Below, piece after piece: positions 47,138 through 63,931 of a stretch of DNA of 64,000 bases. Under the pieces are notes generated by a model. The model did no database searches. It saw nothing but the letters and a program-made list of their open reading frames with translations, and was not told the origin of the DNA. How positions within the stretch are numbered: position 1 is the stretch's first letter; the number at the start of each line of letters is the position of its first letter. A program made the translations under genes and the position numbers. This DNA is from Minisyncoccota bacterium (lineage in GTDB: Bacteria > Patescibacteriota > Minisyncoccia > Phycocordibacterales > XYD1-FULL-46-19): the NCBI GenBank assembly GCA_041663165.1, contig JBAZRF010000003.1, forward strand, positions 11,364-75,363. The letters run 5' to 3'.

Positions 47138-47153
47138 GATCCTGACTTAACGC

Positions 47154-47184
47154 AAAATCCCCCGAAAAGCTCGGGGGATTTTGC
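47154..47184 (+). terminator. Rho-independent terminator (AAAATCCCCCGAAAAGCTCGGGGGATTTT)
   Basis: 8-bp GC-rich stem followed by a T-run. Confidence 0.6.
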
Positions 47185-47398
47185 TATGATTTTTTTAGAA
47201 AAATTTCGGCAGGTGTGGGGTAGAGCACGCCCCACACCTGTGCCGGCTGGGAACCCCACACCTCGGAGATCCAGAACCAGACTAGCAAACTCGTTATTGT
47301 CCGTAAAGGGAGAATTAATTTTGTATAAAAATTTGCAAAGGGGTGGGGATTTTAGACTTCCCAAATATTGAGAAGTTTGTTATATTATCAAGCGTTAA

Positions 47399-47471
47399 GG
47401 GCCATTAGCTCACTTGGTAGAGCGCTTCCATGGCATGGAAGAGGTAAGCGGTTCGATCCCGCTATGGTCCA
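47399..47471 (+). tRNA. tRNA-Ala (anticodon GGC)
   Basis: Cloverleaf drawn by hand. G3:U70 identity pair, anticodon loop ATGGCAT, T-loop TTCGATC. No encoded CCA. Confidence 0.75.
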
Positions 47472-47539
47472 CTGCTCCGCTCCCGCTACGCAGTACACGC
47501 ACTTTCTAAATTTATCGACATAGTGCAAACACGACTACT

Positions 47540-47612
47540 GGGCCGTTAGCTCATCTGGTAGAGCGCCTGCTTTGCAAGCAGGAGGTAAGCGGTTCGAGTC
47601 CGCTACGGTCCA
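47540..47612 (+). tRNA. tRNA-Ala (anticodon TGC)
   Basis: G3:U70 pair, anticodon loop TTTGCAA, T-loop TTCGAGT. No encoded CCA. Confidence 0.8.
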
Positions 47613-47678
47613 CATAGGGCAAATTTCGAGTTTTGTGCTATAATATATTTAATTAATAATTAACCAACATTAATTTTT

Positions 47679-48730: not shown

Positions 48731-48961
48731 ATGTTTAAAGAATTCTTTGTTAAGCGTGAATTAAAGAAGATGGGCGTATCTGGTGAGCAATTAGATGCCA
48801 TGATGAAGGTGGTTAAGGGTAATCCCGGTCTCTTTCAAAAACTCGGAGCTGAAATTGAAGAAAAGGTAAGCAAAAATAAAATGGGTCATCAGGAAGCGGC
48901 TTTAGCGGTGACAACTAAATATCGAGCGGAGCTTGCTAAAATCTTTAGTCAAAAATCTTAA
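48731..48961 (+). CDS. Hypothetical 76-aa protein
   Basis: ORF only. Confidence 0.3.
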   Translation: MFKEFFVKRELKKMGVSGEQLDAMMKVVKGNPGLFQKLGAEIEEKVSKNKMGHQEAALAVTTKYRAELAKIFSQKS

Positions 48962-49380
48962 ATCGCTTGACGTGCTATCTTAGAGAAAATAAAGGTTCGA
49001 TAAATAAGATAATTGGCAATCGCCAAACCGGCGAGAATAATCACTTGATCTAGTAGATACCAAATATGCAACTGGTCGTTTAAGATGTACATGGCCAGGG
49101 CTGAGACAACGAGATTGAGGCTGGTGATAGAAAAATAAAAAAAAGCCTGTTTAAGCCAACGGGGGGACTGATCTTTAAAAGTCCAGATTTTATGAAGAGT
49201 AAAACCAATCGTGCCCGAAATTAAACTCGCACCAATCGTCCCCCAGACTGGCCAGAGGCCCAAACCGCTCACCAAAACAAAAATAGTCAGGAGCGAAGAA
49301 GCCGACGAGATACTTCCGGCGATTAAAAATTTAATGGGCTCAAAAATTGACCAATCTGGGTCATTTTTAAAATTAAACAT
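48958..49380 (-). CDS. GtrA-family small membrane protein (polyprenyl-phosphate-sugar translocation-associated)
   Basis: 4 TM helices and a KIWTF motif typical of GtrA-like proteins. Confidence 0.65.
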   Translation of the reverse strand: MFNFKNDPDWSIFEPIKFLIAGSISSASSLLTIFVLVSGLGLWPVWGTIGASLISGTIGFTLHKIWTFKDQSPRWLKQAFFYFSITSLNLVVSALAMYILNDQLHIWYLLDQVIILAGLAIANYLIYRTFIFSKIARQAI

Positions 49381-49494
49381 GAGTATTAATTGATTAACGG
49401 TCCCGCTATTATAACTCGTAATTTAGTTTGGCTCAAGTTTGGTGCAGGGGGGACTTTTGAACCAAAATGAATTATACTAGGCAATAATCTACCC

Positions 49495-50244
49495 ATGACC
49501 GAATCGTGGCAAAAAGTGTCTGGTCTAAGTTGGACGTTGGCCAAGGCCAATTTTAAATTGCGAACCGAGGGGAGCTACTTGGGTGTTTTGTGGTATTTGC
49601 TCGATCCAGTCTTGCTTTTTGCAATCTTGATCTATGTCTTTGGCTCAAATCTGGGAGCTTCTATTAAGTTTTACCCACTATACTTAATTTGGGGTCTGGT
49701 GATGTTTAATTTCTTTACGACGGTCACGAGTCAAGCAACTTCGGTTATTGTTAATAATGCCCTGTTCATTAAATCAATGAAAATTCGATCGGAGGTTCTT
49801 GTCGTCTCGATTCTACTCCAAACAATCTTTTCGCATCTTTTTGAAATCATCGTTTTGGTTGCTCTGACGGTCTATTTTGGCGCATCACTCTTAAGTTTAC
49901 TTATTTATTTGCCAATTTTTATTTTCTTTTGCGCTCTTACCTTGGGCATATCTTTTTTCTTAGCGGCTTTTGGTGTCTATGTTTCTGATCTAAACAACGT
50001 CTGGAAGTTTTTTACTCAGGCGCTCTTTTTTGCCACGCCAATTTTTTATGCCTCGGCAAAACCCTTGATCCTTTTGCTTAATCCGCTAGCTTCTTTTTTG
50101 GCGATTACTCGGGGTCTGATTATTTATCATGAGTGGCCGGGCCTAAAGATTATTTCTTTATCGGCGATAACCAGCGTCCTCGCCCTTTTTGTCGGCTGGT
50201 ATCTATTTAGTTTGGTTAAAAACAAATTTGCCGAAAATCTATGA
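49495..50244 (+). CDS. ABC-2 type polysaccharide/teichoic-acid exporter permease (Wzm/TagG-like)
   Basis: 6-TM ABC-2 layout. Translationally coupled to the following ATPase gene. Confidence 0.75.
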   Translation: MTESWQKVSGLSWTLAKANFKLRTEGSYLGVLWYLLDPVLLFAILIYVFGSNLGASIKFYPLYLIWGLVMFNFFTTVTSQATSVIVNNALFIKSMKIRSEVLVVSILLQTIFSHLFEIIVLVALTVYFGASLLSLLIYLPIFIFFCALTLGISFFLAAFGVYVSDLNNVWKFFTQALFFATPIFYASAKPLILLLNPLASFLAITRGLIIYHEWPGLKIISLSAITSVLALFVGWYLFSLVKNKFAENL

Positions 50245-50984
50245 GAATTAATTTACAGGGAGTTGGTAAAAAATTTAATCTAAATTTCAAAAAGAGGGAA
50301 GGTATCCTTGCCCGTCTGTTGTCGGTTTTTTCCTTGAGCAAAAACACTAACGATTTTTGGGTTTTTCGCGGAATTGATTTTACGCCCGCCGATGGCCAAA
50401 TTGTTGGCATCATTGGCCGAAATGGTTCAGGTAAATCAACTTTGCTTCGGGTACTGGCGGGAATTTATCAAGCTGATGAGGGAACAGTTAAGTTAAAAGG
50501 TCAGGTGGCATATTTAACCGGATTTGGCCAAGGCTTAATGCCCAAATTAACAATGCGCGAAAATATCTATCTGGTCGGTTCTTTGCTTGGCTTGGGTCAA
50601 AAAGAAATTAAACAGCGTTTTGCGGAGATCGTTGAATTTTCTGAACTGGGTGAATACATTGAAACGCCGGTCTACAAATTTTCCTCCGGCATGGTTTCGC
50701 GACTAAGTTTTTCAACCACGATTTTTTGCTTAAAACATCGCAATCCGGATATTTTGTTAATTGACGAGGCTCTCGAGGCCGGGACTGATTTAAACTTTAG
50801 GAATAAGGCTTTAAATAAGATGGAAGAAATTTTACTCACCGGTGCCAATGTCGTTTTAGTTAGCCATGATTTAGTCATGATTGAGAAGTATTGCCATGAT
50901 GTTATTTGGCTAGACAAGGGGAAAATTGTCAAACAGGGACCGGCTAGCGAAGTGGTCGAGGCTTATGTTAAGGTAAACGAGTGA
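50241..50984 (+). CDS. ABC transporter ATP-binding protein (Wzt/TagH-like)
   Basis: Walker A GRNGSGKST, a signature-like FSSGM, and Walker B LLIDEAL. Confidence 0.8.
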   Translation: MRINLQGVGKKFNLNFKKREGILARLLSVFSLSKNTNDFWVFRGIDFTPADGQIVGIIGRNGSGKSTLLRVLAGIYQADEGTVKLKGQVAYLTGFGQGLMPKLTMRENIYLVGSLLGLGQKEIKQRFAEIVEFSELGEYIETPVYKFSSGMVSRLSFSTTIFCLKHRNPDILLIDEALEAGTDLNFRNKALNKMEEILLTGANVVLVSHDLVMIEKYCHDVIWLDKGKIVKQGPASEVVEAYVKVNE

Positions 50985-53900
50985 ACGGAGAAAAAAGACA
51001 AAAAGTAATTTTGGTTCTTGGTATGCACCGAAGCGGTACCTCGGCCTTGGCCGGCATCCTACAGTTTTTGGGAGTGGACTTGGGTCCCAACCTGATGCCG
51101 GCAAGCGAATTTAATCCTCGCGGCTACTTTGAAGATCTTGATATTGTTGGGATAAACGATAAAATTCTGTCAGCTATTGGTTCTGGTTGGAATGATCTAA
51201 ACGAACTCCCTGATAACTGGCCAGTAAGGTTCCCGTCGGTATTGGCGCTTAAAGAAGATCTAAAGAAAATTATCAGTCGAGATTTTGGGTCTTCATCCAT
51301 TTTTGCCATAAAGGATCCTCGCCTTTGTTTATTGTTACCACTTTATTTTGAGATTTTTCAAGATTTAGCCATCGATTCAAGCTTGGTTCGTATCCAGAGA
51401 GCTCCGGCCGAAGTCGCTTTTTCCTTGGGGCGGTCAGAAAAATTGAATCTGGTTAAAGCGTTACAACTTTATCGTAAGTATCAAAAATATCTGGAAAAAT
51501 ACTTGGTCGGACGCCGAGTCGTTACGGTTGAATTTAACCAACTCTTGAACAATCCGGCCCAGGTAATCTCTTTGATTAAAAATCTAGTTCCCGAAATACC
51601 CTTTGATTATCAGGTACGCCAAAAGGAAATAGATGCCTTTTTAGATTATCAGTTAAAACATTTTGGCCAGCAAAGCCAAGATGATTGCCTGTTTTCGCTA
51701 TTGGATAATATTAATGAAAATGAACAGACCATCGTCTTGACCAATCAAACTATCGAACAAGATAAAAAAAGACTGAACGAGGTACTTAACCAAAGAGAGC
51801 GGTTGCAGCAAGAAAACATAAAAAAAGATGTTGAGATCGCCACCCGGCAAGAACAGCTGGAAGAATTAAAGCAACAAAATCTCGAGCGCGATATCTTTAT
51901 TGAATCTCAACATCAGGAACTAGCCACTATAAAAAGTAGCTTGACCTGGAGAATGCAAAAGGTTGTTGATCGATGGATAAGCCTTTTGCTTAGTCGAAAT
52001 GACGGCCAAAGGGGTCGTTCGCGGGAAGAAATTGCCCGCCAATATTTGATTGGTGAGGGAATTGAAATTGGCGCCCTGCATCAGCCGCTTAAATTGGACC
52101 AAAGTAGGGCCAGGGTTCATTATGTTGATTACCTCGACCAAGAGGGATTAAAAAAAGTTTATCCCGAGATAAACTCTGACAGTATCACCACCCCTGAGAT
52201 CATTGCCAAGGCCGAAGACTTGAGTCCGATTGCCGATAGTAGTCAGGATTTCGTCATTGCCAATCATTTACTTGAACATGTTTCTAATCCAGTCGAAGCG
52301 CTCTCGGAATTCTACCGAGTAACCAAAAAGGAGGGTGGAATCGTTTTTTTAACCCTGCCGAACAGTCGATCCTGTTTTGATTCAGCCAGAGAAATTACCA
52401 GATCCCAACACTTCAGAGACGATTTTGATCTTAATAACAGCGAACGAAAAGTTGTAGATCTTGGTCATTATTTAGACTGGGCAATCAACGTCTTAAAAAT
52501 TCAAAATATTGATGAGGCTAATAGAATTGCCCATGAACTAAGCGCTAAGGGGTATCCAATTCATTTCCATGTCTTTAGTTATCAATCGGCCATTGATTTT
52601 ATCAATAGTCTAGAAATTAATTATGGTTTTGGTTGGGAAATGATTTATTCGCAAGAAGACAAGGACGAATTCATATTTATTCTTCGTCCCAAAACAGAAA
52701 AGGTAGAAATAGGTTTAACTGAGAATTATCAACCTCTCGTTTTGCCAGCCTGTGTCGAACCGGAAGTTTCCATTATTATCCCCGTCTATAACAAGTTTAA
52801 ATATACCTACCGGTGTCTAAAGTCTCTCCTTGAGGCGGAACCAGGGTTAAAATATGAAGTCATTGTCGCCGACGATGGCTCGACTGATGAGACTCTAAGA
52901 ATAGGGGAATATTTTAGTCAGATCAGAGTAATCAGAAATGAAACAAATCTTAGATTTTTGAAAAATTGTAACAAAGCGGCCCTTGAAGCCAAAGGTAAAT
53001 ATTTACTGTTTCTAAATAATGACACCAAAATACTGCCTGGTGCGATCTCACACTTACTCGCCACGATCAAAAGTAATGAAACAATTGGGGTTGTCGGCGG
53101 TCGGCTAATTTTGCCTGACCAAACCTTACAGGAGGCTGGCGGTATTTTATGGAGCGATGGAACCTGTTTTGGTTATGGCCGTGGCGATGATCCTTTTAAG
53201 CCCGAGTATTCATATGTGAGAGAAATCGATTATTGTTCAGGCGCTCTTCTCTTGACACCAACTGAATTATTTTTAGGACTAGGCGAGTTTGATATCCGTT
53301 TTGCGCCCGCCTATTATGAAGATGCCGATTATTGTACCGCCGTCATTAATAAAGGGTACAAGGTAATTTATCAGCCGTTGGCCAGTGTGATTCATTATGA
53401 ATTTACCAGCCACGGCAAGAGCTCGGCCACTGAACTTCAAAAAAGAAATGGCCAACTCTTTAGAACTAAGTGGCAGGAATATTTGAATTTTAAATATCCG
53501 GCGGATTTAAAAAACACTTTATGGGCGCGAGACAATCAAAATTTTAAAAGTCGGGTCTTGATTATTGATGACCGATTGCCCAATGCTAAACTTGGCGCTG
53601 GCTACCCGAGGGCTAGGGCCATCCTAGATATTCTGCTAGAGCAAAAAAGGTTTGTTACCTTTTTGCCGACAGAAATTAACTACGAAGAGGATATTGATTG
53701 TCTCAGGGAGCTCCGACAATTAAGCGTCGAAATTCTTTGCCAGACCGAGAGAAATCCCTTCAACGCCGCTAATCTCGCAGATCTTTTGGCCAAACGGGAA
53801 GATTTTTACGATCAGATTGTGATTAGTCGACCCGCCAACATGGCCAGGCTGGGGGATCTTATTAGAGGCAAAATCAATAGGGCAAAGACTAAGATAATCT

Positions 53901-56617
53901 ATGATGCTGAAGCCATTTTTGCTCGGCGCGAGGTTTCTCGGCAGCATCTTTTGGGTGGCGGTTTATCAAAAAAGAAGGAAGAAGAAATAATCGAATCGGA
54001 GGTGGCGCTGGCTAAAGACTCAGATCGAATCATCGCTGTATCAGAGAGTGAGAAAGAAGTCTTCCAAGAATATGGCGTAAAAAACGTTTCGGTTCTTGGT
54101 CAAGCCACTGAAGTTAAACTCTCACCAAACCCCTTTGCGTCACGGAAAGATATTTTATTTGTTGGCAGTGTCCATACGGAGGGCGACGATAACCCCAACT
54201 TTGATTCACTGGTTTATTTTATTAAAGAGGTTTTCCCTTTGATCGCCTCACAACTTGACTGCAACTTGCATATTGTCGGTTTAAATAAATCTGAACAACT
54301 AAAGAAATTGCAGTCAGCGAGAATAAAAATTGTCGGTCAGGTTGATAATCTCAACGATTACTATAATAATTGTCGCGTTTTTGTTGCTCCAACCAGATTT
54401 GCTGCCGGGATTCCCTTAAAAGTGGTCAATGCCGCGGCGGCCGGTCTCCCGAGCGTGGTCACCCCCTTGTTGGGCGAGCAATTGGGCTGGGCAGATTCGA
54501 ACGAGTGTTTAATCGGAAGTTTGCCGACGGAATTTGCTGAGCGGGTGGTAACTTTATACCAAACCCCAAAATTGTGGGAAAAAATAAGAACGAACGCAAC
54601 TCTGGCCATAAGTCGGGAATATTCTCTAGAAATCGCTCGACGAAAAATTTCCGAGATTTTTGATTACAAAAGGGACCGAGACCAAACTAGGGCTAAAGAC
54701 TCCGCATTAGCTAAAAACGCCAAGGCCGAATCTTCCCATTGGGATAAAATCAAAAAAGCCATCCTTGTTGTCCGACACTATCCTTATTATGTTGTTAAAA
54801 ATCCTCTTCTGCTCCCGAGATTTTTTCGAATACTTTTTCGCCAAGGTTTGTACCAGGCCTGGCAAAATGCCTATGATTTTCTTCAACTTCAGGCTAGTAA
54901 TAATTTCTTGGCAACAGCAAGCGCTGGCCGGCCCTTCTTGCCTAGTTCTGACTATGATCAAACTGTCAAACTAAAAGAATCTGACCTCGACTTAAAAAAT
55001 CGAGCGTTCAAACAGATTAAGAACTTTTCGCATCTGCCAAAAATCAGTATCCTGATGCCCGTTTGGGACATCTCTCCCAAGCTATTATCGATTACCATCG
55101 AATCCGTTCTTCGCCAGCATTATCCTTTGTTTGAATTGTGTATCGGTAATGGCAGTCAAAATGCCAAAGTCGTCGAATGTCTTAACCGATATGCCCAAAA
55201 AGATAATCGTATCAAGGTTGTTCACCTCGAGAATAATAAAGGCATATCAGGAAACTCTAACGCCGCTTTGGCGCTCGCCACGGGAGAATTCGTTGCCCTT
55301 CTCGATTATGATGATGAATTAAGCCCAGACGCCCTGTTTGAAGTTGCTAAACTTGTCAATCGAAAACCATCGGCCGATTTGATCTATAGCGACGAAGACA
55401 AGATCAATCTTACTGGGCAGTATTGTTATCCATTTTTCAAGCCAGATTGGTCGCCAAGCCTCTTACTTTCAATGAACTATATTTGCCATCTAACGGTCTT
55501 AAGAAGATCTCTTATTAATAAACTTGGCGGGTTACGCGGGAAGTATGATGGAACTCAAGATTATGATTTAGTCCTTCGGGCGACCGAGCTAACAAACCAA
55601 ATTTTTCATATTCCTAAAGTGCTGTATCACTGGCGAATGACGCTAAACTCAACAGCCTATCGAATTGATGCTAAACCGCAGTGTTATATCTTGGCCCATC
55701 AGGCGATCGAAGAGGCTCTGGAGAGAAGAAAGCTTAGGGCCCGAGTGGCCAAAGAGTCCCTCTTCCCGTTTTTTGTCCGCTATGAAATTGCCGCTGAGCC
55801 ATTGGTTAGCATTATCATTCCCACTAGGGATAAAGCTGACTTGTTGGGCCGGTGCCTAACGAGTATTATCAGCAAAACAAGTTATAAAAATTATGAAATA
55901 ATAATTGCCGACAATGATTCGCGAGAGGAAGAAACAAAAAGGTATTTACGCTGGCTCAAAGATAACCATTCACAGGAAATAAAAGTTGTTGAGTACCATA
56001 AAAAATACAATTATTCAGGCATAAACAATTTTGCGGCCGGCTTTGCTCGCGGCGAGATCCTCTTGTTTTTAAATAATGATACCGAAGTGATTAATTCGGA
56101 TTGGCTTACGGCACTGGTCGAGCAGGCCGAATTGCCAGCGGTTGGTGCGGTTGGCGCTAAATTACTCTACGCTAATAATACGATTCAACATGCGGGAGTT
56201 ATTTTTGGTACGGATAACAACGTGACCCACGCCTTTCGTCAATTGCCGGACGGCCAGCAATCTTATTTTTATCAAGCTGAAGTTATTCGTAATTATGGGG
56301 CGGTCACGGCCGCCTGTCTGGCTATTCGCAAGAATGTTTTTGCTGAACTTGGCGGTTTTGACGAGAGTTATGAAGTGCCCTACAGTGATATTGAACTTTG
56401 TTTACAACTTAGAAAAAAAGGGTATCTGATTGTTTACACTCCGCTGGCCAGGCTTTATCATTTCGAGTCGGCAACGCGAGGACTTGAGCCTTGGTATGCT
56501 GATGCCGAGTTATTTTTTAAGCGTTGGGGAGAAATGATTACCACTAAGCCGGATCCATACTACAATCCTAATCTAAGTCTTAATCCGGAGGAGACTTTTA
56601 CTTGGCGGGGTTATTAG
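50981..56617 (+). CDS. Giant multidomain glycan-assembly enzyme (1878 aa): sulfotransferase, coiled-coil, class-I SAM methyltransferase, GT2, GT4, GT2, GT2
   Basis: Sulfotransferase-like GMHRSGTS at aa 14-21. Coiled-coil about aa 240-330. MTase about aa 340-540 (IEIGALHQP...FVIANHLLEH). GT2 VSIIIPVYNKF...ADDGSTDE. GT4 ILFVGSV...VFVAPTRFAAGIP. Third GT2 ISILMPVWD...DYDDEL. Fourth GT2 VSIIIPTRDK...ADNDS. GTG start overlaps the wzt stop (GTGA). Confidence 0.8.
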   Translation: MNGEKRQKVILVLGMHRSGTSALAGILQFLGVDLGPNLMPASEFNPRGYFEDLDIVGINDKILSAIGSGWNDLNELPDNWPVRFPSVLALKEDLKKIISRDFGSSSIFAIKDPRLCLLLPLYFEIFQDLAIDSSLVRIQRAPAEVAFSLGRSEKLNLVKALQLYRKYQKYLEKYLVGRRVVTVEFNQLLNNPAQVISLIKNLVPEIPFDYQVRQKEIDAFLDYQLKHFGQQSQDDCLFSLLDNINENEQTIVLTNQTIEQDKKRLNEVLNQRERLQQENIKKDVEIATRQEQLEELKQQNLERDIFIESQHQELATIKSSLTWRMQKVVDRWISLLLSRNDGQRGRSREEIARQYLIGEGIEIGALHQPLKLDQSRARVHYVDYLDQEGLKKVYPEINSDSITTPEIIAKAEDLSPIADSSQDFVIANHLLEHVSNPVEALSEFYRVTKKEGGIVFLTLPNSRSCFDSAREITRSQHFRDDFDLNNSERKVVDLGHYLDWAINVLKIQNIDEANRIAHELSAKGYPIHFHVFSYQSAIDFINSLEINYGFGWEMIYSQEDKDEFIFILRPKTEKVEIGLTENYQPLVLPACVEPEVSIIIPVYNKFKYTYRCLKSLLEAEPGLKYEVIVADDGSTDETLRIGEYFSQIRVIRNETNLRFLKNCNKAALEAKGKYLLFLNNDTKILPGAISHLLATIKSNETIGVVGGRLILPDQTLQEAGGILWSDGTCFGYGRGDDPFKPEYSYVREIDYCSGALLLTPTELFLGLGEFDIRFAPAYYEDADYCTAVINKGYKVIYQPLASVIHYEFTSHGKSSATELQKRNGQLFRTKWQEYLNFKYPADLKNTLWARDNQNFKSRVLIIDDRLPNAKLGAGYPRARAILDILLEQKRFVTFLPTEINYEEDIDCLRELRQLSVEILCQTERNPFNAANLADLLAKREDFYDQIVISRPANMARLGDLIRGKINRAKTKIIYDAEAIFARREVSRQHLLGGGLSKKKEEEIIESEVALAKDSDRIIAVSESEKEVFQEYGVKNVSVLGQATEVKLSPNPFASRKDILFVGSVHTEGDDNPNFDSLVYFIKEVFPLIASQLDCNLHIVGLNKSEQLKKLQSARIKIVGQVDNLNDYYNNCRVFVAPTRFAAGIPLKVVNAAAAGLPSVVTPLLGEQLGWADSNECLIGSLPTEFAERVVTLYQTPKLWEKIRTNATLAISREYSLEIARRKISEIFDYKRDRDQTRAKDSALAKNAKAESSHWDKIKKAILVVRHYPYYVVKNPLLLPRFFRILFRQGLYQAWQNAYDFLQLQASNNFLATASAGRPFLPSSDYDQTVKLKESDLDLKNRAFKQIKNFSHLPKISILMPVWDISPKLLSITIESVLRQHYPLFELCIGNGSQNAKVVECLNRYAQKDNRIKVVHLENNKGISGNSNAALALATGEFVALLDYDDELSPDALFEVAKLVNRKPSADLIYSDEDKINLTGQYCYPFFKPDWSPSLLLSMNYICHLTVLRRSLINKLGGLRGKYDGTQDYDLVLRATELTNQIFHIPKVLYHWRMTLNSTAYRIDAKPQCYILAHQAIEEALERRKLRARVAKESLFPFFVRYEIAAEPLVSIIIPTRDKADLLGRCLTSIISKTSYKNYEIIIADNDSREEETKRYLRWLKDNHSQEIKVVEYHKKYNYSGINNFAAGFARGEILLFLNNDTEVINSDWLTALVEQAELPAVGAVGAKLLYANNTIQHAGVIFGTDNNVTHAFRQLPDGQQSYFYQAEVIRNYGAVTAACLAIRKNVFAELGGFDESYEVPYSDIELCLQLRKKGYLIVYTPLARLYHFESATRGLEPWYADAELFFKRWGEMITTKPDPYYNPNLSLNPEETFTWRGY

Positions 56618-57704: not shown

Positions 57705-57706
57705 CG

Positions 57707-59050
57707 TTAAGAATTTTTAAACCCATTAATTTTTTTCCATCTCAAGACTTCTACGACCTTACTGTCCAGAAATTTTTCTTCGGGGAAGAGGGGGGCGATT
57801 TTGTAGCACTGCCCAACATCTTCCTGCTTAATGTTGGTGTAGCAACCAAGAGCTCTTTGCCCGTTTACTTTTTGATCGTTTGCCCATTTGATAGGCCAAA
57901 CGCTGAACATAAGAAAACTGCCGACCATAAAAGCGAATAAGACCATTTTAAACATCCACCCTTTTTTAAAATCGGCAAAAACAAAAAACAATCCCAAGGG
58001 GAGCAACATTGAAAAGGTTATGTAGCGATAACTTAAGCCCTGAGTAAGGCCAAAGGATGACCTGCCCAGTGCTAAGGTTAAGATAAAGAGTACCCCGAAA
58101 ATTATCAAAACTAAACCCACCAAGCAGTTCTTGTTTAGTCCGGGTTTGAATATTCGATAGATAGCCAGAACTAAAAATACCAATAAGACGAATAACAAAA
58201 TATAGTTAACAAAATCGTTTCTTAAATAAAAAAAGCCACCGCTTAGAGTGGTTGAAAAATATTTTAGAATTGGCAAAGCATCGGCGCTAAGCTTAGTCTG
58301 AAAATCCTGAACATAGCCGATAAAGTAAGAGACAATAATTAAGATATTCGCCAAACCGGCAAACATGATTACTCGCCGCTCCTTCTGATTTTTAAAATAA
58401 TCAAAGAGCGCTAGGCCGATGGTTATTAGGGGTAAGAATAAGCCATGGAAGCTAGAGTAACTGCTTAGAAAAGCGATAATTGTTAAAATTGAATATCGCC
58501 AATCGGTTGATTTTATTTTCAACATAGCGACGAGCCACAGACTGAGAAAGAAAAAGGGCAGGATGAACGAAATTTGAAAGCCCCAAATCAGATTTTCTAC
58601 CTGAAAGATGTTTAAAACGAGAAAGGGAATAAAAATATCGAGCCACTCTAATTTCTGGCTGGCTAGATATTTTGCGTAAGTAAGTAGCCCGGCCGAAGCA
58701 ATCAATAAGAAAGAGATAAATTTTATTTCAAGTAATTGGCTCCAGTTAGAAAAAGATGCCAAAAATTTAATAATGAGCAATCCCACTCCGATTCGGTGCT
58801 CATTATGCTGATAAAAAAACAATTGCCAAAAATTATAATGGGTTTTGTCAGTAATTATGTCGGCTAAACTCCACTGGTCCAAATAGGGGATATCCACGGC
58901 TCGGCTGGCGATAAAAAAGGCAAAGCTATAAACGATGGCGGTAAAACCGGCCAGCAAAAATACTTTTATAAATTTTTCTTCGCCAAACAATTCAATAAAT
59001 TGAAGGCTATATTTTTTTATTTTTTGTACCACAAGCAGCCCTGTTTTCAT
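57707..59050 (-). CDS. Polytopic membrane protein (447 aa), possible GT-C-type glycosyltransferase
   Basis: More than 10 TM helices. Sits among GT2 and GT-C genes. Confidence 0.4.
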   Translation of the reverse strand: MKTGLLVVQKIKKYSLQFIELFGEEKFIKVFLLAGFTAIVYSFAFFIASRAVDIPYLDQWSLADIITDKTHYNFWQLFFYQHNEHRIGVGLLIIKFLASFSNWSQLLEIKFISFLLIASAGLLTYAKYLASQKLEWLDIFIPFLVLNIFQVENLIWGFQISFILPFFFLSLWLVAMLKIKSTDWRYSILTIIAFLSSYSSFHGLFLPLITIGLALFDYFKNQKERRVIMFAGLANILIIVSYFIGYVQDFQTKLSADALPILKYFSTTLSGGFFYLRNDFVNYILLFVLLVFLVLAIYRIFKPGLNKNCLVGLVLIIFGVLFILTLALGRSSFGLTQGLSYRYITFSMLLPLGLFFVFADFKKGWMFKMVLFAFMVGSFLMFSVWPIKWANDQKVNGQRALGCYTNIKQEDVGQCYKIAPLFPEEKFLDSKVVEVLRWKKINGFKNS

Positions 59051-59793
59051 TGTTTTTTATAATCTCCCTGGGATAGCCATTTTTCTAATAGGCAATAAAG
59101 AATAATGAAAAAATAGCGACTGCCCATTTCCTTTATTCGCAATTTGCTCTGGCCGGCCTGGCGATTTGTCCAACAATTAGGCACTATGGCGTAAGTATAG
59201 CCACGAACAATGGCCTTAAGCGGCAGCTCAACCGTTAAGTTAAAATGGTTGCTGAGAAATGGTCTTAAACCTTCAATTACCTCTCGCCGGTAAAGTTTAA
59301 AAGCGTTGGTTGTATCGTTATACTTGATTCCAAACAAAAGTTTAATCAAGTTATTAGTCAACCGGTTCAGATAATATTTAAATTTGGGATAACCGATAAC
59401 CTGGCCGCCAGATATAAATCTTGAGCCAAAGACGCAATCGTAGCCCTCCTCAATTTTCTGATAATATTTTACCAAGTCCTCGGGTCGATCGGAAAGGTCA
59501 GCCATAACGATCGCTACGTAATTACCGGAAAAGTTATCCAAACCCTTTCTGACCGCTAAACCAAAGCCGTTAGGAAGGGGTTTATTAAAATACCTAAGCT
59601 CAATTATTTCTAGCGACAATTCCTCAAGAATTTTTTCTGTTTGATCAGTACTATTATCGTTGACGATGATAATTTCATGGTCAATAAGGGCTTTTTTTAA
59701 TTCGTCGTGAAAGGCGCGAATAGTTTTTGCAATACTGCCACTTTCGTTGTGGGCCGGGATGATGAGGGACAGTTTTTTTGTTGGGCTCGGCAT
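59047..59793 (-). CDS. Glycosyltransferase family 2 (polyprenyl-phosphate sugar synthase, DPM1-like, soluble)
   Basis: LSLIIPAHNE...IIVNDNSTD...DxD-like MADLSD. Confidence 0.75.
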   Translation of the reverse strand: MPSPTKKLSLIIPAHNESGSIAKTIRAFHDELKKALIDHEIIIVNDNSTDQTEKILEELSLEIIELRYFNKPLPNGFGLAVRKGLDNFSGNYVAIVMADLSDRPEDLVKYYQKIEEGYDCVFGSRFISGGQVIGYPKFKYYLNRLTNNLIKLLFGIKYNDTTNAFKLYRREVIEGLRPFLSNHFNLTVELPLKAIVRGYTYAIVPNCWTNRQAGQSKLRIKEMGSRYFFIILYCLLEKWLSQGDYKKQ

Positions 59794-59797
59794 AATT

Positions 59798-60943
59798 TTA
59801 ACGGTTTTTGATGCCCAGGATACTTAGCATAAAAGAGGAAAAGATAGTTTGTAAACCAAGAAAAACCAGGGTTTGCGCCACAATCAAGTTTTTGACTTCA
59901 TCGAGAGAGCTGAAGCTTGAATCATACCAGCGCCAAAAAACTAGACTCATAACAATTATTCCGACTAAGGCCAAACCGATGCCAACCAAGGAGGCCCGCT
60001 CGATACTTAGATGCTTGTAAATTTTCTCTAGCCACGGCGATGGCTCGCCTAAATGAACGTGGGCATAAGTTCGGGCAAAAACGGTGAAGATTATTAATTG
60101 ATAGCCGATGAGTAAAAGAAGTGAGGCGCCAAACATTGGGTGATAATAAAAACGTAAATTGTTCAAGCTGAGCTGGTCAAAATAGAGAAGAATTGTTGTC
60201 AGTAATCCGACCAGAGCCAAAACAATGCCCGGTAATAAGAACAAGAGGGTCGGGCTATAAAGCAAGAGAAATCTCAGGTGTCGCCAGCCGTCAGGAATGG
60301 TCCGCAGTTTGGATTCACCTTGTCGCCGGGCATAATTGATCGGCAACTCAACAATTTTCAAATTTTTCTTGCCGGCTTTAATCATCATCTCTGAGGCAAA
60401 CTCCATGCCAGTGGTTCTTAAATCTAACCGATTGAGCGCGGCGCGCGAAATAGCCCGTTCGCCCGAGTGGATGTCGTTAATCTTCAATCCAAAAAATATT
60501 TTGGTTAAGAAAGCAAAGATGATTCGGCTCAAATAACGATGAGAGGTGGGCATGGCGCCGGACTCGATTTGGCCGGCAAAACGATTGCCGATTACTAAAT
60601 CAGCGCCACTCTGCAATTCTCTTAAAAATTTTGGCAGCTCATCAAAATCATAAGTGCCATCAGCATCAGCCATAAAGATATATTGTCCGCGAGCGGCTTT
60701 AAATCCTTCAAGATAAGCATTGCCGTAACCGTCTTTGTCGTGTTTAACTAAAACCACTCCGGCCTCACGAGCAATTTGCGGTGAACGGTCGGTTGATGAA
60801 TCAGCCACAATAATCTCGGCTGATAAATTATTTTGGGCAATTACTCTCTTGGCTTTGGCAAGACAACTAGCCAATGACGTTTCTTCGTTGCGGCACGGCA
60901 AAACAATGCTAACAAGAACTTTTTCTTCAGAGAAAGTAGACAT
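59798..60943 (-). CDS. Glycosyltransferase family 2 with C-terminal TM helices (GtrB/ArnC-like polyprenyl-phosphate glycosyltransferase)
   Basis: VSIVLPCRNEE...VADSSTDRS...ADADG DxD motif, followed by 3-4 C-terminal TM helices. Confidence 0.75.
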   Translation of the reverse strand: MSTFSEEKVLVSIVLPCRNEETSLASCLAKAKRVIAQNNLSAEIIVADSSTDRSPQIAREAGVVLVKHDKDGYGNAYLEGFKAARGQYIFMADADGTYDFDELPKFLRELQSGADLVIGNRFAGQIESGAMPTSHRYLSRIIFAFLTKIFFGLKINDIHSGERAISRAALNRLDLRTTGMEFASEMMIKAGKKNLKIVELPINYARRQGESKLRTIPDGWRHLRFLLLYSPTLLFLLPGIVLALVGLLTTILLYFDQLSLNNLRFYYHPMFGASLLLLIGYQLIIFTVFARTYAHVHLGEPSPWLEKIYKHLSIERASLVGIGLALVGIIVMSLVFWRWYDSSFSSLDEVKNLIVAQTLVFLGLQTIFSSFMLSILGIKNR

Positions 60944-60945
60944 TT

Positions 60946-62433
60946 TTATTTTATTTTTACAACCGAAAAAAGACTGCTACTTTTTGACTGCCGGAGCACC
61001 TTAAGTCCCGGGCAGTCAAGGGTTTTCATTGTTCTTGGCCAATAAATGATTGTCGCCCCAGTTGATTCTATTATCTTTTGCTTCTGTTCGCAATTACTTG
61101 GCCGATAAAAATTTTCTACGGTTTTGCGGCTACCGTAAAAATTTATTGCTCCGACCGGTTCGTGGTCGGTTAGGGCAACTAGGGCTGTACCAAATGGCAG
61201 CGTCCCCATCACAATTGTTTTTGGTTTTTGAGCAAGAAATTGAATCGCTTCGTAATCATCGGAATTGATTACTTTATAGAGTCGACTTTCTCTTGGTAAA
61301 TTGAAGTAACCGGCGAAAATGGCTAGAAAACTTGTTACTATTAAAATCCCGCCGATTAATCGGGAGTACCGCTGTTTCTCTGGCCAATTAACTAACCAGC
61401 TCGGTAAAGTTTTTTGGGTGAAATAGTATAGACCATAGCCGCTAAAAAGCGGTATAACCAAGGTTAGGTAATAGAGGTTTCGTTGAAATGGGCTAAAAAA
61501 TGAAAAGCCAACAAAGCGATAGATAAGGGTTGAGAAGATAAGAACAATTGACCAAAGAAGATAAAAAGAATAGTGGCGTTGGTCTTGGTGCAAAAGATAG
61601 CTCATCCCAACTAAGGCCCAAAGCCAAGCCGGCCAGGGATAAAGCTCAAATAATGGATTATTTAGTTCAAGTACGCCCCAACCGCGAGAAAATTTTAATA
61701 GAGAAAAAATCTGCTCTAACGCGGCTATTAAACTTTTACCGAAGACCAAAGCAAAGAAACCGACACCAACAATAAAAATCAATAGAGAAAAAATCCATAA
61801 CCATTTTTCTTTTACCGCCTGACGATAATTAATTAAGTCAAAAATTGCGATGATCGGTAGGGAAAACAGAACTGATAGGGGATGGCAAAAAAGTAGTCCG
61901 AACATGATAAAAAAGCCATAAAATAGGTATCTTCTGTTTGCGGTGAGGATTCCTTCGCTTATAAAGTAGGCATAGAGAAAGATAAAAGGAAAAGAGAAGG
62001 ATAGAGGGGTAAAAAACCACAAACCTGTTAAATTAGCGTTGGTGCGAATAGCCATAAAGAAAAGTAGTGATAACCAGGCCAATAAAAAATTTTTGGAACC
62101 TTTTTGGTAGGCAACAAAAAACAGTGCTAGGCCCGAAAAAATTGCCCACAGGGCGGGGAGAAATTTGTAAATCAAAACGACATTAAAAACTTTTGACAGG
62201 AGAAGAATGATTAGTTGAAAACCGACTTCTAAACCGCTCATTGCTCGTCCCGGCTCGGCTCGCAACCAAGTAAAATAATCAGCGGGATTGGCCAAGCGTT
62301 TGGCTTCGGTCAGGTGATGCCACTCATCGACATGAAAAGGAAAAGGATATGAGAAATGGGGCCAAAAAACCAATAGCCCGAAGGATAGAAGGGTAATTGC
62401 GAGAATAGTCCATCGAAGATTGGTCATAAACAA
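60946..62433 (-). CDS. GT-C fold membrane glycosyltransferase (ArnT/PMT-like, 495 aa)
   Basis: About 12 TM helices with an HVDEW acidic motif in the first extracytoplasmic loop, as in GT39/GT83-type enzymes. Confidence 0.5.
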   Translation of the reverse strand: MFMTNLRWTILAITLLSFGLLVFWPHFSYPFPFHVDEWHHLTEAKRLANPADYFTWLRAEPGRAMSGLEVGFQLIILLLSKVFNVVLIYKFLPALWAIFSGLALFFVAYQKGSKNFLLAWLSLLFFMAIRTNANLTGLWFFTPLSFSFPFIFLYAYFISEGILTANRRYLFYGFFIMFGLLFCHPLSVLFSLPIIAIFDLINYRQAVKEKWLWIFSLLIFIVGVGFFALVFGKSLIAALEQIFSLLKFSRGWGVLELNNPLFELYPWPAWLWALVGMSYLLHQDQRHYSFYLLWSIVLIFSTLIYRFVGFSFFSPFQRNLYYLTLVIPLFSGYGLYYFTQKTLPSWLVNWPEKQRYSRLIGGILIVTSFLAIFAGYFNLPRESRLYKVINSDDYEAIQFLAQKPKTIVMGTLPFGTALVALTDHEPVGAINFYGSRKTVENFYRPSNCEQKQKIIESTGATIIYWPRTMKTLDCPGLKVLRQSKSSSLFSVVKIK

Positions 62434-62575
62434 TATTTTTCATGATAAGACGTTGTTGACAATTTGTCCATAAACTTTAAGGTTATCCACAGCTCGTTAC
62501 TAAAAAATAGTTTTTGCTTTGTTTTTTCTGATATAATGTTACCAGTCTTTATTTTTAGTCTAAATTATAATAAAA

Positions 62576-63931
62576 ATGACAAAGAAACGTTTGTTTGTTC
62601 TAGGGGCGCATGTAGTTTTAATAATGCTTTTGCTTGTTTCGGTTGCCTCGGCGCAATTTACAAGAATAGAGGGTGATCCAGACGGACTAGGCTATGGTTA
62701 TGGTTACGGATTCGGCGAAGGTTACGGCTGGGACGCCAGTCTTGATTATATGGCAGGAATCAGACTAACTTCTGAGTTGGCCAATGATGTTTATGGCTAT
62801 GGTTACGGTTATGGTTATTTGGATTCTTCGATTTATAATCCTTCTTCCGATATATTCGGTATTGATGGCGCAGACCCGTCAAGTTTCATGTTATTAATAA
62901 TCGGCGGTGTTGCAGGTGTCGATGGGCTTGAATTGTCGGTTGATCCCGAAGGGGCGCCTACTTTTACCGGGATAACCTTTTATGTTCCGGTGGAGTTCAC
63001 CATTGGCAGCGGTAGTACGGTTGAGGGGGGAGAAAACACCTGTTTCAGCTCGACTGTTCCTCTTGACCGTACTGATCCGAGCGCTAGTTTAATTGGCGTG
63101 GCCGGTATCCCGGTCGTTGATCCTCCTACTGGTTACTCAGCAATAAGCGGAAGTTCCTTGTTGTTTGGCTTACCGAGTTATGGCTTAACTGTTAGCCCGG
63201 CGATTACCATCAACATAAATGTTGGTTCCCGTTATAACGGCACGACTCTTAGTGTCCTGCATAAAGCGGTGGGTGGTCATTGGGTATTGTTAGCAACCTG
63301 TGCGGTTACGGCTAATGTTTGCTCCTTCCAGACAGCGCACTTATCATCATTTGCGGTTGCAACTTATACGGCGCCAGCAGCAGCCCGTCATCTTGGCGGT
63401 AGCGGTGGCAACAATTTGACTGTTCCCGGGGTAACCAGCTCGACAACCGCCGTTTCTATTCCCGTTATCACTAAGGTCTTAAGGTATAAAATGATAAGTA
63501 AGGAAGTTAATTTATTGCAACAACTACTAAAAGGTCTTGACTATTTGTCAATAAAAAACACCACTAATTATTTTGGAGTAACAACCCGAGATGCCCTTAA
63601 AAGGTATCAGAAAGATCGTCGTTTAAGAGCTTCTGGTATCACCGATGTTCCTACTCGAGCTTTCCTAAATCAAGATCTGGCGAATCCACTTCTAGCCAAG
63701 CACGCGGTCATTAATCAGCTCACCAAAAATCTTGCTTATAAATCTACCGGGTCAATGGTCAAGTCATTGCAGGAAAAACTGAAAAAACTTGGCTACTTTG
63801 CGGGAGAAACTACCAATTATTATGGTTTGGTTACTAAAAAAGCCGTGACCGATTTCCAAAAGAAGATGGGAATTAAACCAGCGAACGGACTTGTTGGTTC
63901 TACAACTCGAGCGACATTAAATAGCCTTTAA
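62576..63931 (+). CDS. Secreted GYG-repeat protein with two C-terminal peptidoglycan-binding (PG_binding_1-like) domains
   Basis: Signal peptide; GYGYGYGFGEGYGW and GYGYGYGY repeats; two repeats of the L..LK.LGY....T.YG..T..A...FQ...G pattern. Confidence 0.6.
   Translation: MTKKRLFVLGAHVVLIMLLLVSVASAQFTRIEGDPDGLGYGYGYGFGEGYGWDASLDYMAGIRLTSELANDVYGYGYGYGYLDSSIYNPSSDIFGIDGADPSSFMLLIIGGVAGVDGLELSVDPEGAPTFTGITFYVPVEFTIGSGSTVEGGENTCFSSTVPLDRTDPSASLIGVAGIPVVDPPTGYSAISGSSLLFGLPSYGLTVSPAITININVGSRYNGTTLSVLHKAVGGHWVLLATCAVTANVCSFQTAHLSSFAVATYTAPAAARHLGGSGGNNLTVPGVTSSTTAVSIPVITKVLRYKMISKEVNLLQQLLKGLDYLSIKNTTNYFGVTTRDALKRYQKDRRLRASGITDVPTRAFLNQDLANPLLAKHAVINQLTKNLAYKSTGSMVKSLQEKLKKLGYFAGETTNYYGLVTKKAVTDFQKKMGIKPANGLVGSTTRATLNSL

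Follow-up and report, generated by a model that had tools for sequence, protein, structure and literature searches.

A putative cell-surface glycan locus in Candidatus Paceibacterota with a conserved trio of uncharacterised, archaeal-looking glycosyltransferases

Judged from its sequence, a 15-kb block in the genome of an ultra-small bacterium (Candidatus Paceibacterota, CPR) does encode predicted machinery for building, exporting and decorating a cell-surface sugar polymer. Its overall design is already known in other bacteria, and the block is probably a genuine CPR cell-surface glycoconjugate locus built on that two-route design. Among the new points, the 495-aa GT-C, a DPMS/AglJ-like GT2 with a C-terminal TM domain (GT2-TM) and a GT4 appear as a conserved trio, and the remaining GT2/GT-C pair appears to be a local insertion.

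Results

In the window, that is, the whole stretch of 64,000 nucleotides analysed, all ten open reading frames listed in an earlier note were confirmed with their coordinates (Table 1), and the reduced genome assumed there agrees with the source, a Candidatus Paceibacterota MAG. Neighbouring genes overlap by 4 nt on both strands, which indicates two convergent (tail-to-tail) operons. The island had been thought to end at 63931, but the contig continues past the window end with further glycan genes: a sugar-nucleotide dehydrogenase, an SDR epimerase/dehydratase and a PgaC-like membrane GT2. Neither an initiating phosphoglycosyltransferase (WecA/WbaP type) nor an O-OTase was found in the window.

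Window proteins were annotated with Pfam and NCBIfam profile models. Among the domains expected beforehand, GT2, GT4, GtrA, ABC2_membrane and Methyltransf_11 were matched, but the sulfotransferase stayed below the Pfam threshold and neither GT-C of the window reached that of any Pfam GT-C family. The gene content fits the proposed combination of an ABC-transporter-dependent glycan route with GtrB/ArnC-type synthase/GT-C pairs and a GtrA-type flippase.

Table 1. Predicted features of the locus (positions in the window; domains of the 1878-aa protein by residue)
Feature	Position	Strand	Evidence
GtrA-family small membrane protein, putative polyprenyl-P-sugar flippase	48958..49380	-	Pfam PF04138 (GtrA_DPMS_TM) 5.5e-17
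Wzm-type ABC-2 permease	49495..50244	+	PF01061 (ABC2_membrane) 1.2e-8
Wzt/TagH-type ATPase, 247 aa	50241..50984	+	TagH 3.1e-51 and 1e-45, Wzt/RfbE 2e-45
Giant enzyme, 1878 aa	50981-56617	+	Methyltransf_11, three GT2 domains, one GT-B (Glyco_trans_1_4) domain
Sulfotransferase-like domain, putative chain-capping enzyme, 1-235	50981..51685	+	homologues
Coiled-coil-like spacer, ~236-341	51686..52003	+	composition, heptad register
SAM-dependent methyltransferase domain, ~342-580	52004..52720	+	Methyltransf_11 6.4e-10, residues 377-456
First GT2 (GT-A) domain, ~590-860	52748..53560	+	PF00535 best 597-713; EpsD-like 596-807
GT-B (GT4-like) domain, ~861-1240	53561..54700	+	Glyco_trans_1_4 2.3e-21, residues 1056-1194
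Second GT2 domain, ~1345-1590	55013..55750	+	NCBIfam GT2 models 1353-1553
Third GT2 domain, ~1600-1878	55778..56617	+	Glyco_tranf_2_3 2e-32, residues 1609-1830
GT4 glycosyltransferase, third trio member	56598..57704	-	PF00534 8.2e-27
447-aa membrane-only GT-C, uncharacterised family, partner of soluble GT2	57707..59050	-	GT-C fold
Soluble GT2, resembles polyprenyl-phosphate hexose synthases	59047..59793	-	PF00535 5.8e-26
GT2-TM, DPMS/AglJ/ArnC-type polyprenyl-P-sugar synthase	59798..60943	-	AglJ model 1.8e-43
495-aa GT-C, OST-like, AglB-type C-terminal domain, uncharacterised family	60946..62433	-	structure comparison
Secreted GYG-repeat protein, two C-terminal PG_binding_1 domains	62576..63931	+	PG_binding_1 2.3e-26, two stretches

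The permease and ATPase genes overlap by 4 nt. The permease also matches the galactan Wzm/RfbD model (2.3e-8), under the model cutoff, and the TagH and Wzt/RfbE scores of the ATPase are all under equivalog cutoffs. ABC_tran covers residues 43-178 of the ATPase, which by Pfam consists of the nucleotide-binding domain only and has no C-terminal carbohydrate-binding module (CBM).

Six catalytic domains are recognised in the giant enzyme, which had been described as having seven modules, but the seventh is a non-catalytic, coiled-coil-like segment of about 110 aa free of Pro and Gly. The uninterrupted run without these residues is 112 aa long (residues 230-341); in residues 255-335 E/K/R/D/Q make up 51%, and the hydrophobic residues lie mostly in two heptad registers. 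The GT-B domain has a TIGR03087 match across 1001-1227, and chondroitin synthase 2z86 aligns to residues 1410-1567 of the second GT2. The identity of the N-terminal domain as a sulfotransferase is supported through homologues only: many of its 2124 homologues have PF13469 or PF00685, the direct Pfam match is sub-threshold (E 0.009, 19 residues), and no sequence match to residues 1-235 was found in the PDB. No PAPS-synthesis gene is seen in the window, so the sulfotransferase activity stays putative. One homologue adjoins Wzt in the related locus L084. In L087, from an unrelated genome, another immediately follows Wzm, APS kinase and a Wzt_C-bearing Wzt, an arrangement that supports a capping role for the sulfotransferase in ABC-dependent pathways.

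Both polytopic proteins had been called GT-C-like, and GT-C folds with invariant acidic residues in the first loop were indeed found; the loop motif is D-E and the conserved residues are D36/E37 and D58. The best structural matches of the 495-aa GT-C (493 aa in the public gene call) are the oligosaccharyltransferases (OSTs) STT3/AglB/PglB, including the AglB C-terminal core domain. They rank above lipoglycan GT-Cs, with PimE and AftA/AftB also among the matches, and ArnT and PMT match more poorly than OSTs. The best family model of GT2-TM is AglJ, yet the score is under cutoff; its closest solved structure is P. furiosus DPMS (5mlz, 5e-18), followed by ArnC (1e-7), and PF26629 GT2_TM_C is recorded for an identical gene. 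GT4 is best matched in the PDB by 2f9f, 'first mannosyl transferase (wbaZ-1)' (6e-48).

Synteny was compared at 78 species-level related GT-C loci with flanks of up to ~9-10 kb. Trio loci come from CPR bacteria, Omnitrophota and DPANN archaea, the archaea contributing more than half. GT2-TM lies immediately downstream of the 495-aa-type GT-C in 29 of 66 testable loci; GT4 orthologues (up to ~625 bits) stand beside the GT-C in most loci extending far enough, and score at least 250 bits in 24 of 45. Wzm/Wzt and a sulfotransferase-coiled-coil gene are frequent neighbours of the trio. Of 24 loci with complete flanks, 11 contain Wzt, and these include bacterial as well as archaeal ones; roughly half of the trio loci with complete flanks have no Wzm/Wzt within ~9-10 kb, so the two routes may not always share one product. 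A minimal version has six genes (L084: GT-C, GT2-TM, GT4, sulfotransferase-coiled-coil, Wzt and Wzm), with GT2-TM and GT4 as the only Leloir GTs. Across the related loci, the conserved module contains no phosphoglycosyltransferase, other ligase or GtrA. A GtrA homologue is missing from all 78 loci even at E<=10, which leaves the conserved trio without a linked flippase; the predicted GtrA protein is present at this locus but outside the conserved module.

The soluble GT2 and 447-aa GT-C unit is likewise absent from all 78 related loci. The soluble GT2 is dolichyl-P-hexose/PgfS/AglJ-like, but its scores against Dol-P-hexose transferase (6e-18), PgfS (7e-18) and ArnC (3.7e-15) are all under cutoffs. 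In another CPR genome a Rosetta-stone fusion protein (P0130), encoded alone amid housekeeping genes, has an N-terminal half 49% identical to the soluble GT2 and another half 37% identical to the 447-aa GT-C. The unit would be an accessory decoration unit inserted locally, and the two GT2/GT-C pairs of the island appear to have different histories.

It is unlikely that the block is a mosaic in which an ABC-dependent polymer, two unrelated GT2/GT-C units and the downstream PgaC-like synthase have separate products. The inserted unit with its stand-alone fused counterpart, the many trios lacking Wzm/Wzt nearby, the third, synthase-type unit past the window end and the differing inserts held in the slot between GT2-TM and GT4 among related loci would agree with this. 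However, trio and Wzm/Wzt are repeatedly linked across the deeply diverged CPR, Omnitrophota and DPANN, and the genes overlap inside each of the two converging operons.

Discussion

Domain content and gene order suggest that in one route the 1878-aa enzyme and GT4 would build a lipid-linked glycan on the cytoplasmic face. The sulfotransferase-like domain may cap the chain with the coiled-coil-like spacer as length ruler, and the translationally coupled Wzm/Wzt ABC-2 transporter would export it. In the other route, the two DPMS/ArnC/AglJ-type GT2 enzymes would attach single sugars to polyprenyl phosphate, the GtrA protein may flip these, and the two GT-C enzymes, whose folds are found, would use them outside the membrane, with the soluble GT2 and 447-aa GT-C as the accessory pair. 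The logic of each route has published precedent (PMC9574508, PMC8035078, PMC11231755, PMC11127046).

Such a combination is plausible, and the pairing is already well described. Although the earlier note regarded it as undescribed, it corresponds exactly to the textbook account of rhamnose cell-wall polysaccharides and is also known for O-antigens (PMC9574508, PMC8035078, PMC11127046). Lactococci, streptococci and enterococci have rhamnose pathways (Rgp/Gac/Epa, Csd/CflA, Wps) in which a lipid carrier bears the growing backbone, a Wzm/Wzt-type transporter exports it, and side chains are attached outside by pairs of GT-A polyprenyl-P-sugar synthase and GT-C, several of which can be served by one GtrA-type flippase (PMC9574508, PMC8035078). 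The island shares the exporter type, the GT-A/GT-C pairs and a single GtrA-type protein. It differs in that the window has no rml genes, rhamnosyltransferase signatures, TagO or LCP ligase, in the fusion of polymerase and terminator in one protein, and in GT-C families that are unrelated in sequence, with a core trio common to archaea.

The multidomain terminator-coiled-coil-polymerase format is known in Klebsiella O7 and O12, and coiled-coil terminators comprise E. coli O9a WbdD, K. pneumoniae O12 WbbB and K. pneumoniae O7 ORF6 (PMC11231755). As in all three, the putative cap domain of the island protein is at the distal coiled-coil end and the gene adjoins wzm-wzt; as in WbbB and O7 ORF6, the GT modules are on the same polypeptide (PMC11231755). 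Unlike these O-antigen terminators, the island protein has a sulfotransferase-like cap in place of a kinase, methyltransferase or Kdo transferase, its methyltransferase is at the polymerase end of the coil, and there are four GT modules, not two. The Wzt also differs, since a CBM accompanies every characterised terminator-dependent system (PMC11231755). Post-export modification of an ABC-exported O-antigen by a GT-C with a polyprenyl-phosphate sugar donor is known from the three-component pentofuranose addition (GT136) of Citrobacter youngae (PMC11127046), a combination that the island resembles. That system uses a phosphoribosyltransferase-type synthase and a MATE-family flippase, whereas the island has GT2 synthases and GtrA as candidate flippase.

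GtrABC, ArnC/ArnT and CsbB/YfhO/GtcA likewise combine a GT-A synthase, a GtrA-family protein and a GT-C with D-E in the first loop, but the GT-Cs of the island are under Pfam thresholds and its GtrA is not conserved with the trio. Archaeal N-glycosylation is approached by the AglJ (Dol-P-hexose synthase) match of GT2-TM, by the AglB/STT3 folds and by the share of archaea, more than half, among the loci of the 495-aa GT-C family. The GT-C of the island is, however, linked to a Wzm/Wzt exporter, to our knowledge no described feature of Agl pathways. Unlike AglB, the 495-aa GT-C lacks the WWDYG motif as well as a clear DK/MI motif, N-x-N stands at the second DXD position, and it is shorter than the 591-593 aa of the shortest AglBs reported in 2013 (PMC3703281).

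For the donor of the 495-aa GT-C there is a slight preference for a single sugar; a pre-assembled chain is a more tentative option. The latter belongs to a possible single en-bloc pathway, in which the AglJ-like GT2-TM starts the glycan on polyprenyl monophosphate and both GT4 and the giant enzyme lengthen it. Capping by the sulfotransferase-coiled-coil would fix its length, and after export by Wzm/Wzt the OST-like GT-C would move the complete chain onto a lipid or a surface protein. Gtr-style decoration with single sugars would then be left to the soluble GT2, the 447-aa GT-C and GtrA. The conserved module without phosphoglycosyltransferase, other ligase or GtrA, and the two Leloir GTs of L084 with terminator and exporter, argue for this pathway. 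Such a donor has precedents. In haloarchaea, Dol-P-linked glycans are begun by AglJ. C55-P-oligosaccharides are donors for the GT-C enzymes WpsI and WpsJ (PMC9574508). The altered motifs of the 495-aa GT-C and the many trio loci without Wzm/Wzt nearby argue against en-bloc transfer, and an extra PMT_2-type GT-C beside GT2-TM in one related locus (L086) suggests a monosaccharide donor. Moreover, we know of no Wzm/Wzt that exports a polyprenyl-monophosphate glycan. Reviews count 3WAJ and 5OGL among the solved GT-C structures against which GT-Cs that decorate glycans are identified by structural homology (PMC8035078).

A lipoglycan route like that of mycobacterial PIM/LM/LAM is quite improbable. 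GT4s would make an inner glycolipid, the ABC transporter would move it out and the GT-Cs would extend it with GT2-made polyprenyl-P-hexose, giving a membrane-anchored product that is linked to neither wall nor protein. Four enzyme classes are held in common (GT4, DPMS-like GT2, GT-C and ABC exporter), the structural matches include PimE and AftA/AftB, and a lipid acceptor would fit bacteria and wall-less archaea alike. The weak similarity of GT4 to PimA and PimB is generic (E ~5e-5), however, and the 495-aa GT-C is closer in structure to OSTs. A coiled-coil capping enzyme typifies the Wzm/Wzt polymer pathways rather than LM/LAM (PMC11231755).

The earlier note had proposed S-layer-like or wall-protein glycosylation with the adjacent GYG-repeat protein as acceptor, which is very unlikely. 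This protein is secreted, has five GYG motifs (residues 39, 43, 49, 74 and 78), 18% Ser+Thr and three N-X-S/T sequons, and its gene is divergent from that of the 495-aa GT-C, 142 bp away; in fold, the GT-C comes closest to enzymes that modify proteins. However, no homologue occurs within 10 kb at any of the 78 related loci, including L006, which is 69% identical, neighbour clustering of these loci gave no conserved candidate acceptor, and peptidoglycan-binding proteins are unexpected in the archaea that make up most of them. Membership of the protein in the system is not supported by these comparisons, and it is probably a neighbour only.

Conclusions

Under the preferred two-route reading, a surface protein or the exported glycan is a likelier acceptor for the 495-aa GT-C than peptidoglycan is, because the trio occurs in archaea where no peptidoglycan is expected and the enzyme is structurally closest to OSTs. 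A protein acceptor in general is mildly favoured by the similarity to the OST fold. The core enzymes of this island belong to uncharacterised, archaeal-looking families that the ultra-small CPR host has in common with equally tiny DPANN archaea.

Organisation and limits of the locus

The source of the window is a metagenome-assembled genome of Candidatus Paceibacterota (Patescibacteria/CPR). Identical proteins are encoded there on an 84.5-kb contig, under the locus tags WC640_01575 and WC640_01590. All ten open reading frames of the glycan block lie where the earlier note had placed them. On the forward strand Wzm, Wzt and the gene for the giant 1878-aa protein are joined by 4-nt overlaps. On the reverse strand five genes (GT-C495, GT2-TM, the soluble GT2, GT-C447 and GT4) follow each other with overlaps or gaps of 1-4 nt, and this series and the giant gene face each other with their 3' ends. 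There are two divergent pairs, GtrA with Wzm and the GYG/PG-binding gene with GT-C495. The start of GT-C495 is a TTG in the mechanical ORF (495 aa), while the public call has 493 aa from an ATG two codons downstream.

The GC content of the block (0.385-0.435) is a little under that of most of the window, and falls from about 0.45 to about 0.39-0.43 across the upstream boundary (45383-48713). The downstream end had been set at the GYG-repeat protein, but the contig carries on 3' of it with four further genes (L003:1-4524, reverse orientation), which are a third glycan unit of the synthase type. The right-hand limit of the finding is a window artefact.

Features of the window and of the contig beyond it
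Feature	Position	Strand	Description
S11 fragment	58-660		Second S11 fragment, preceding the YkuD/S11 ORF
YkuD/S11 ORF	671-2086	+	Single ORF with YkuD L,D-transpeptidase and S11 D-Ala-D-Ala carboxypeptidase domains
DIT1_PvcA protein	16806-18425	+	539 aa; Pfam 'pyoverdine/dityrosine biosynthesis protein', 6.6e-32
MliC and M10 proteins	24265-26126	+	MliC lysozyme-inhibitor domain protein, then directly a matrixin-like (M10) metallopeptidase
Surface protein	within 45383-48713		584 aa; FlgD_ig and Bact_surface_Ig-like; just upstream of the island
DUF4349 protein	within 45383-48713		Upstream of the island
Two tRNA-Ala genes	47399-47613		GGC and TGC; upstream of the island
GtrA	48958-49380	-	GtrA protein
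Wzm	49495-50244	+	ABC exporter permease
Wzt	50241-50984	+	ABC exporter ATPase
Giant protein	50981-56617	+	1878 aa, multidomain
GT4	56598-57704	-	Glycosyltransferase
GT-C447	57707-59050	-	Polytopic membrane protein
Soluble GT2	59047-59793	-	Polyprenyl-phosphate-sugar synthase type
GT2-TM	59798-60943	-	Polyprenyl-phosphate-sugar synthase type
GT-C495	60946-62433	-	Polytopic membrane protein
GYG/PG-binding protein	62576-63931	+	GYG-repeat protein
Gene 1	beyond the window		76-aa ORF
Gene 2	beyond the window		Nucleotide-sugar dehydrogenase, closest to UDP-ManNAc/UDP-GlcNAc dehydrogenases
Gene 3	beyond the window		SDR epimerase/dehydratase
Gene 4	beyond the window		PgaC/IcaA-like membrane GT2 synthase

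Most of the domain calls made from the sequence were borne out by Pfam and NCBIfam models, including GtrA (PF04138, 5.5e-17, over the gathering score), ABC2_membrane, a TagH/Wzt-like ATPase, GT4 and two PG_binding_1 domains. The giant protein has a methyltransferase, three GT2 domains and one GT-B domain. Two GT2 (GT-A) enzymes of the block are of the polyprenyl-phosphate-sugar synthase type and resemble DPMS, AglJ and ArnC. GT2-TM matches AglJ (1.8e-43), DPMS 5mlz (5e-18) and ArnC (1e-7), and the soluble GT2 matches models for Dol-P-hexose transferase, PgfS and ArnC (6e-18 to 4e-15), in both cases under the equivalog cutoffs. A phosphoglycosyltransferase of the WecA/WbaP type, which would start a glycan on polyprenyl diphosphate, was absent from the Pfam-scanned window ORFs of at least 150 aa (all but four of these).

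The window also holds genes outside the block for a DIT1_PvcA protein, an MliC protein beside a metallopeptidase, and YkuD and S11 domains. PvcA is an isonitrile synthase, which would be unexpected in a reduced CPR genome.

Fold and family of the two membrane proteins

Both polytopic proteins are GT-Cs, as had been proposed. Alignments built on 109 and 47 homologues, and AlphaFold models with mean pLDDT of 94.9 and 94.7, give a GT-C fold in which the first outer loop has a conserved acidic residue. Together with the two GT2 synthases and the GtrA-family candidate flippase, the window has the three kinds of component that make up multi-component transmembrane glycosylation systems of the GtrABC, ArnCT or CsbB-YfhO type. 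GT-C495 combines the GT-C membrane domain with a C-terminal globular domain that has a common core unit, as in STT3, AglB and PglB. Invariant or near-invariant positions in its family are P32, H34, D36, E37, W38, H39, H40, N132, N134 and the C448/C474 pair. The first-loop motif is H-V-D-E-W-H-H with D36 and E37 invariant, and the D-E in it is like the 'DE' motif of PMT. At the second acidic-motif position, assigned by eye, the family has a nearly invariant but non-acidic N132-x-N134. WWDYG is absent in the family, where 'V-l-a-t-P-l-i-s-T-a' stands opposite AglB 'VLSWWDYGNW' and no W-W-D is conserved. At the DK/MI position a weak HMM alignment sets 'R-x-x-x-E-x-F-F' opposite AglB 'DDAAKFF', with neither D nor K conserved.

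GT-C495 had no match to PF13231 or PF02366 even at E<=10. Across its family PMT_2 was weakly matched by 8 of 61 members (best 2.7e-6) and STT3 by none of the 61. Since the fold is OST-like, WWDYG is absent and the PMT_2 score is too low, GT-C495 is an OST-like GT-C that falls outside the OSTs on WWDYG and outside PMT_2 on score. The ArnT/PMT-like label was rejected as the closest relationship of the 495-aa protein. An OST-like GT-C lacking WWDYG is an unusual variant, and a literature search for a GT-C or OST described in CPR/Patescibacteria found nothing relevant. The family is small and comprises 865 clusters at 50% identity (E<=1e-3) among 1.84 billion proteins. Some longer members (P0401, P0361, P0376, P0397, P0318 and P0319) have extra domains, namely a LamG/ConA-like lectin domain in four, TPR in one and a type I phosphodiesterase/sulfatase-like domain in one.

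It is quite possible that GT-C495 transfers a single sugar, to which the D-E motif of its loop and the slight affinity for PMT_2 point. That it transfers an exported polyprenyl-P-primed chain en bloc is somewhat less likely in our view; its OST-like fold with the C-terminal domain points in that direction.

Conservation of the trio

A genome scan for relatives of GT-C495 gave 78 species-level loci. Going by the labels of the records, DPANN archaea (Woese-, Pace- and Nanoarchaeota) account for 44 of them, Omnitrophota for five and CPR or unclassified bacteria for the remainder. Synteny was assessed by phmmer searches of the six-frame ORFs from these loci, with the window proteins as queries. 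In 29 of 66 testable loci the gene directly downstream of the GT-C was GT2-TM (scores up to about 490 bits), and an orthologous GT4 was found in 24 of 45 (up to about 625 bits). Wzt was present in 11 of the 24 loci flanked by about 9-10 kb on both sides, in bacteria as well as in archaea. GtrA, GT-C447 and the GYG/PG-binding protein were found by phmmer in none of the 78 loci, and a canonical WWDYG-bearing AglB was likewise absent from all of them. When all neighbouring ORFs were clustered, neither a phosphoglycosyltransferase nor a ligase nor a candidate acceptor proved to be conserved. Besides GT-C, GT2, GT4, Wzt and Wzm, the recurrent neighbours were housekeeping genes, a GNAT-like protein and, sporadically, additional membrane proteins resembling GT-Cs.

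The tight pairing of GT-C495 with a DPMS-like GT2 argues for transfer of a single sugar, as do trio loci that have no nearby exporter. The conserved module without phosphoglycosyltransferase, ligase or GtrA is more in line with en-bloc transfer, and so is the self-sufficiency of the minimal module, which has six genes in locus L084.

The distribution of the trio (GT-C495, GT2-TM and GT4) over CPR, Omnitrophota and DPANN is noteworthy. The best matches of the three core genes are all archaeal: AglJ and Pyrococcus DPMS, AglB, and 2f9f 'wbaZ-1', which we take to be an A. fulgidus protein whose gene presumably lies near AglB-S2 (AF_0040). In a midpoint-rooted NJ tree, which has no support values and is therefore suggestive only, the deepest branching is archaeal, with nested clades of CPR and Omnitrophota.

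The closest relatives (L006-L010) have the order GT-C, GT2-TM, GT4 without the soluble GT2 and GT-C447, so this pair is an insertion in the window. The two inserted genes are fused in P0130 and P0134, single proteins of 644-645 aa, and the fusion gene (L001:10001-11935) stands alone amid housekeeping genes of another CPR genome. In another locus (L086:10001-15269) a PMT/PMT_2-family GT-C lies between GT2-TM and GT4, in the slot that holds the soluble GT2 and GT-C447 in the window. Different GT-C inserts thus occupy one slot, which looks like a hot spot for additional GT-Cs. The additional PMT_2 GT-C in L086 also favours the single-sugar reading.

A putative sulfate cap and the ABC exporter

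The direct Pfam sulfotransferase match of the N-terminal domain of the giant protein is weak (E 0.009 over 19 residues), and a PDB sequence search with this domain gave no match. Residues 1-235 have 2124 homologues, typically of 330-370 aa, many with Sulfotransfer_3 or Sulfotransfer_1 and some named sulfotransferase. In L084, from a CPR genome, a homologue of 371 aa (P0158) adjoins Wzt, and on an unrelated 946-kb contig (L087:3330-7038) a homologue comes directly after Wzm, an APS kinase and a Wzt bearing the Wzt_C module. The sulfotransferase identity was accepted because of these homologues and their genomic context, which supports a putative chain-capping sulfotransferase in ABC-dependent pathways. 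The arrangement in L087 suggests that glycans with a sulfate cap and ABC export are a wider, apparently undescribed class.

The sulfotransferase-like domain is followed by a segment of 112 aa (residues 230-341) without Pro or Gly, in which residues 255-335 are 51% E/K/R/D/Q with hydrophobics in heptad-like spacing. Then come the methyltransferase and four GT domains. This order of putative cap, coil-like segment and GT modules resembles the format of WbbB and Klebsiella O7 ORF6 (PMC11231755). A difference is that the methyltransferase of the giant protein lies with the polymerase, across the coil-like segment from the putative cap. A literature search for a sulfotransferase-coiled-coil terminator found no relevant description.

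The adjacent genes for the Wzm permease and the Wzt ATPase are arranged as in loci of the WbdD, WbbB and Kp O7 ORF6 type. However, Wzt of the window (247 aa) is a nucleotide-binding domain only and lacks the cap-reading C-terminal CBM of all characterised terminated systems. The orthologue in L084 has 255 aa, in contrast to the Wzt with Wzt_C in L087. An ABC route without the CBM and with a putative sulfotransferase cap would be an unusual variant.

Acceptor and proposed pathway

The GYG/PG-binding neighbour, proposed in the earlier note as the acceptor, had no database match in an exact-sequence look-up and was rejected as a supported acceptor because of its absence from the 78 related loci. 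Peptidoglycan is unlikely as a universal acceptor because the trio is also found in archaea not expected to have it. A surface protein, the exported glycan and a lipid are candidates.

Domain identities, GT-C folds, conservation of catalytic-loop residues, gene coupling, the fusion and synteny are established here. As to mechanism, the giant enzyme and GT4 would make a lipid-linked glycan, to be capped and exported via Wzm/Wzt. The two GT2 enzymes would supply polyprenyl-P-sugars, which GtrA may flip and the GT-Cs would consume outside the membrane. Gram-positive rhamnose polysaccharides and O-antigens are established examples of this design (PMC9574508, PMC8035078, PMC11127046).

The observation in the earlier note was confirmed and its interpretation found partial support, but 'undescribed system' overstates the case, since architectures of this kind are already known. 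The families to which the core enzymes belong are nevertheless uncharacterised. We consider it unlikely, at the level of a speculation, that GT-C495, the AglJ-like GT2, GT4, the sulfotransferase-coiled-coil protein, Wzt and Wzm make up a self-contained undescribed glycosylation pathway. Such a pathway would consist of priming on polyprenyl monophosphate, polymerisation with a sulfate cap at a ruler-set length, CBM-less ABC-2 export and en-bloc transfer to surface proteins by a minimal AglB-like OST that has lost the N-X-S/T-reading WWDYG pocket. Its module would also have been passed between DPANN, CPR and Omnitrophota.

Significance

The tiny CPR bacteria and DPANN archaea mostly depend on hosts and attach through their surfaces, yet to our knowledge almost nothing is known of their surface glycans. 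Here a Paceibacterota genome spends more than 15 kb on envelope glycosylation, and the core enzymes of the locus belong to compact uncharacterised families common to bacteria and archaea. If GT-C495 takes part in ordinary decoration with side chains, this locus adds a further case of a well-known design. If this OST-like GT-C instead acts on proteins, the oligosaccharyltransferase superfamily would gain a new branch that follows a different acceptor rule, and the six-gene module of L084 would be tractable for heterologous reconstitution and glycoengineering. The self-contained pathway, if true, may add to the surface chemistry of ultra-small, mostly host-attached cells.
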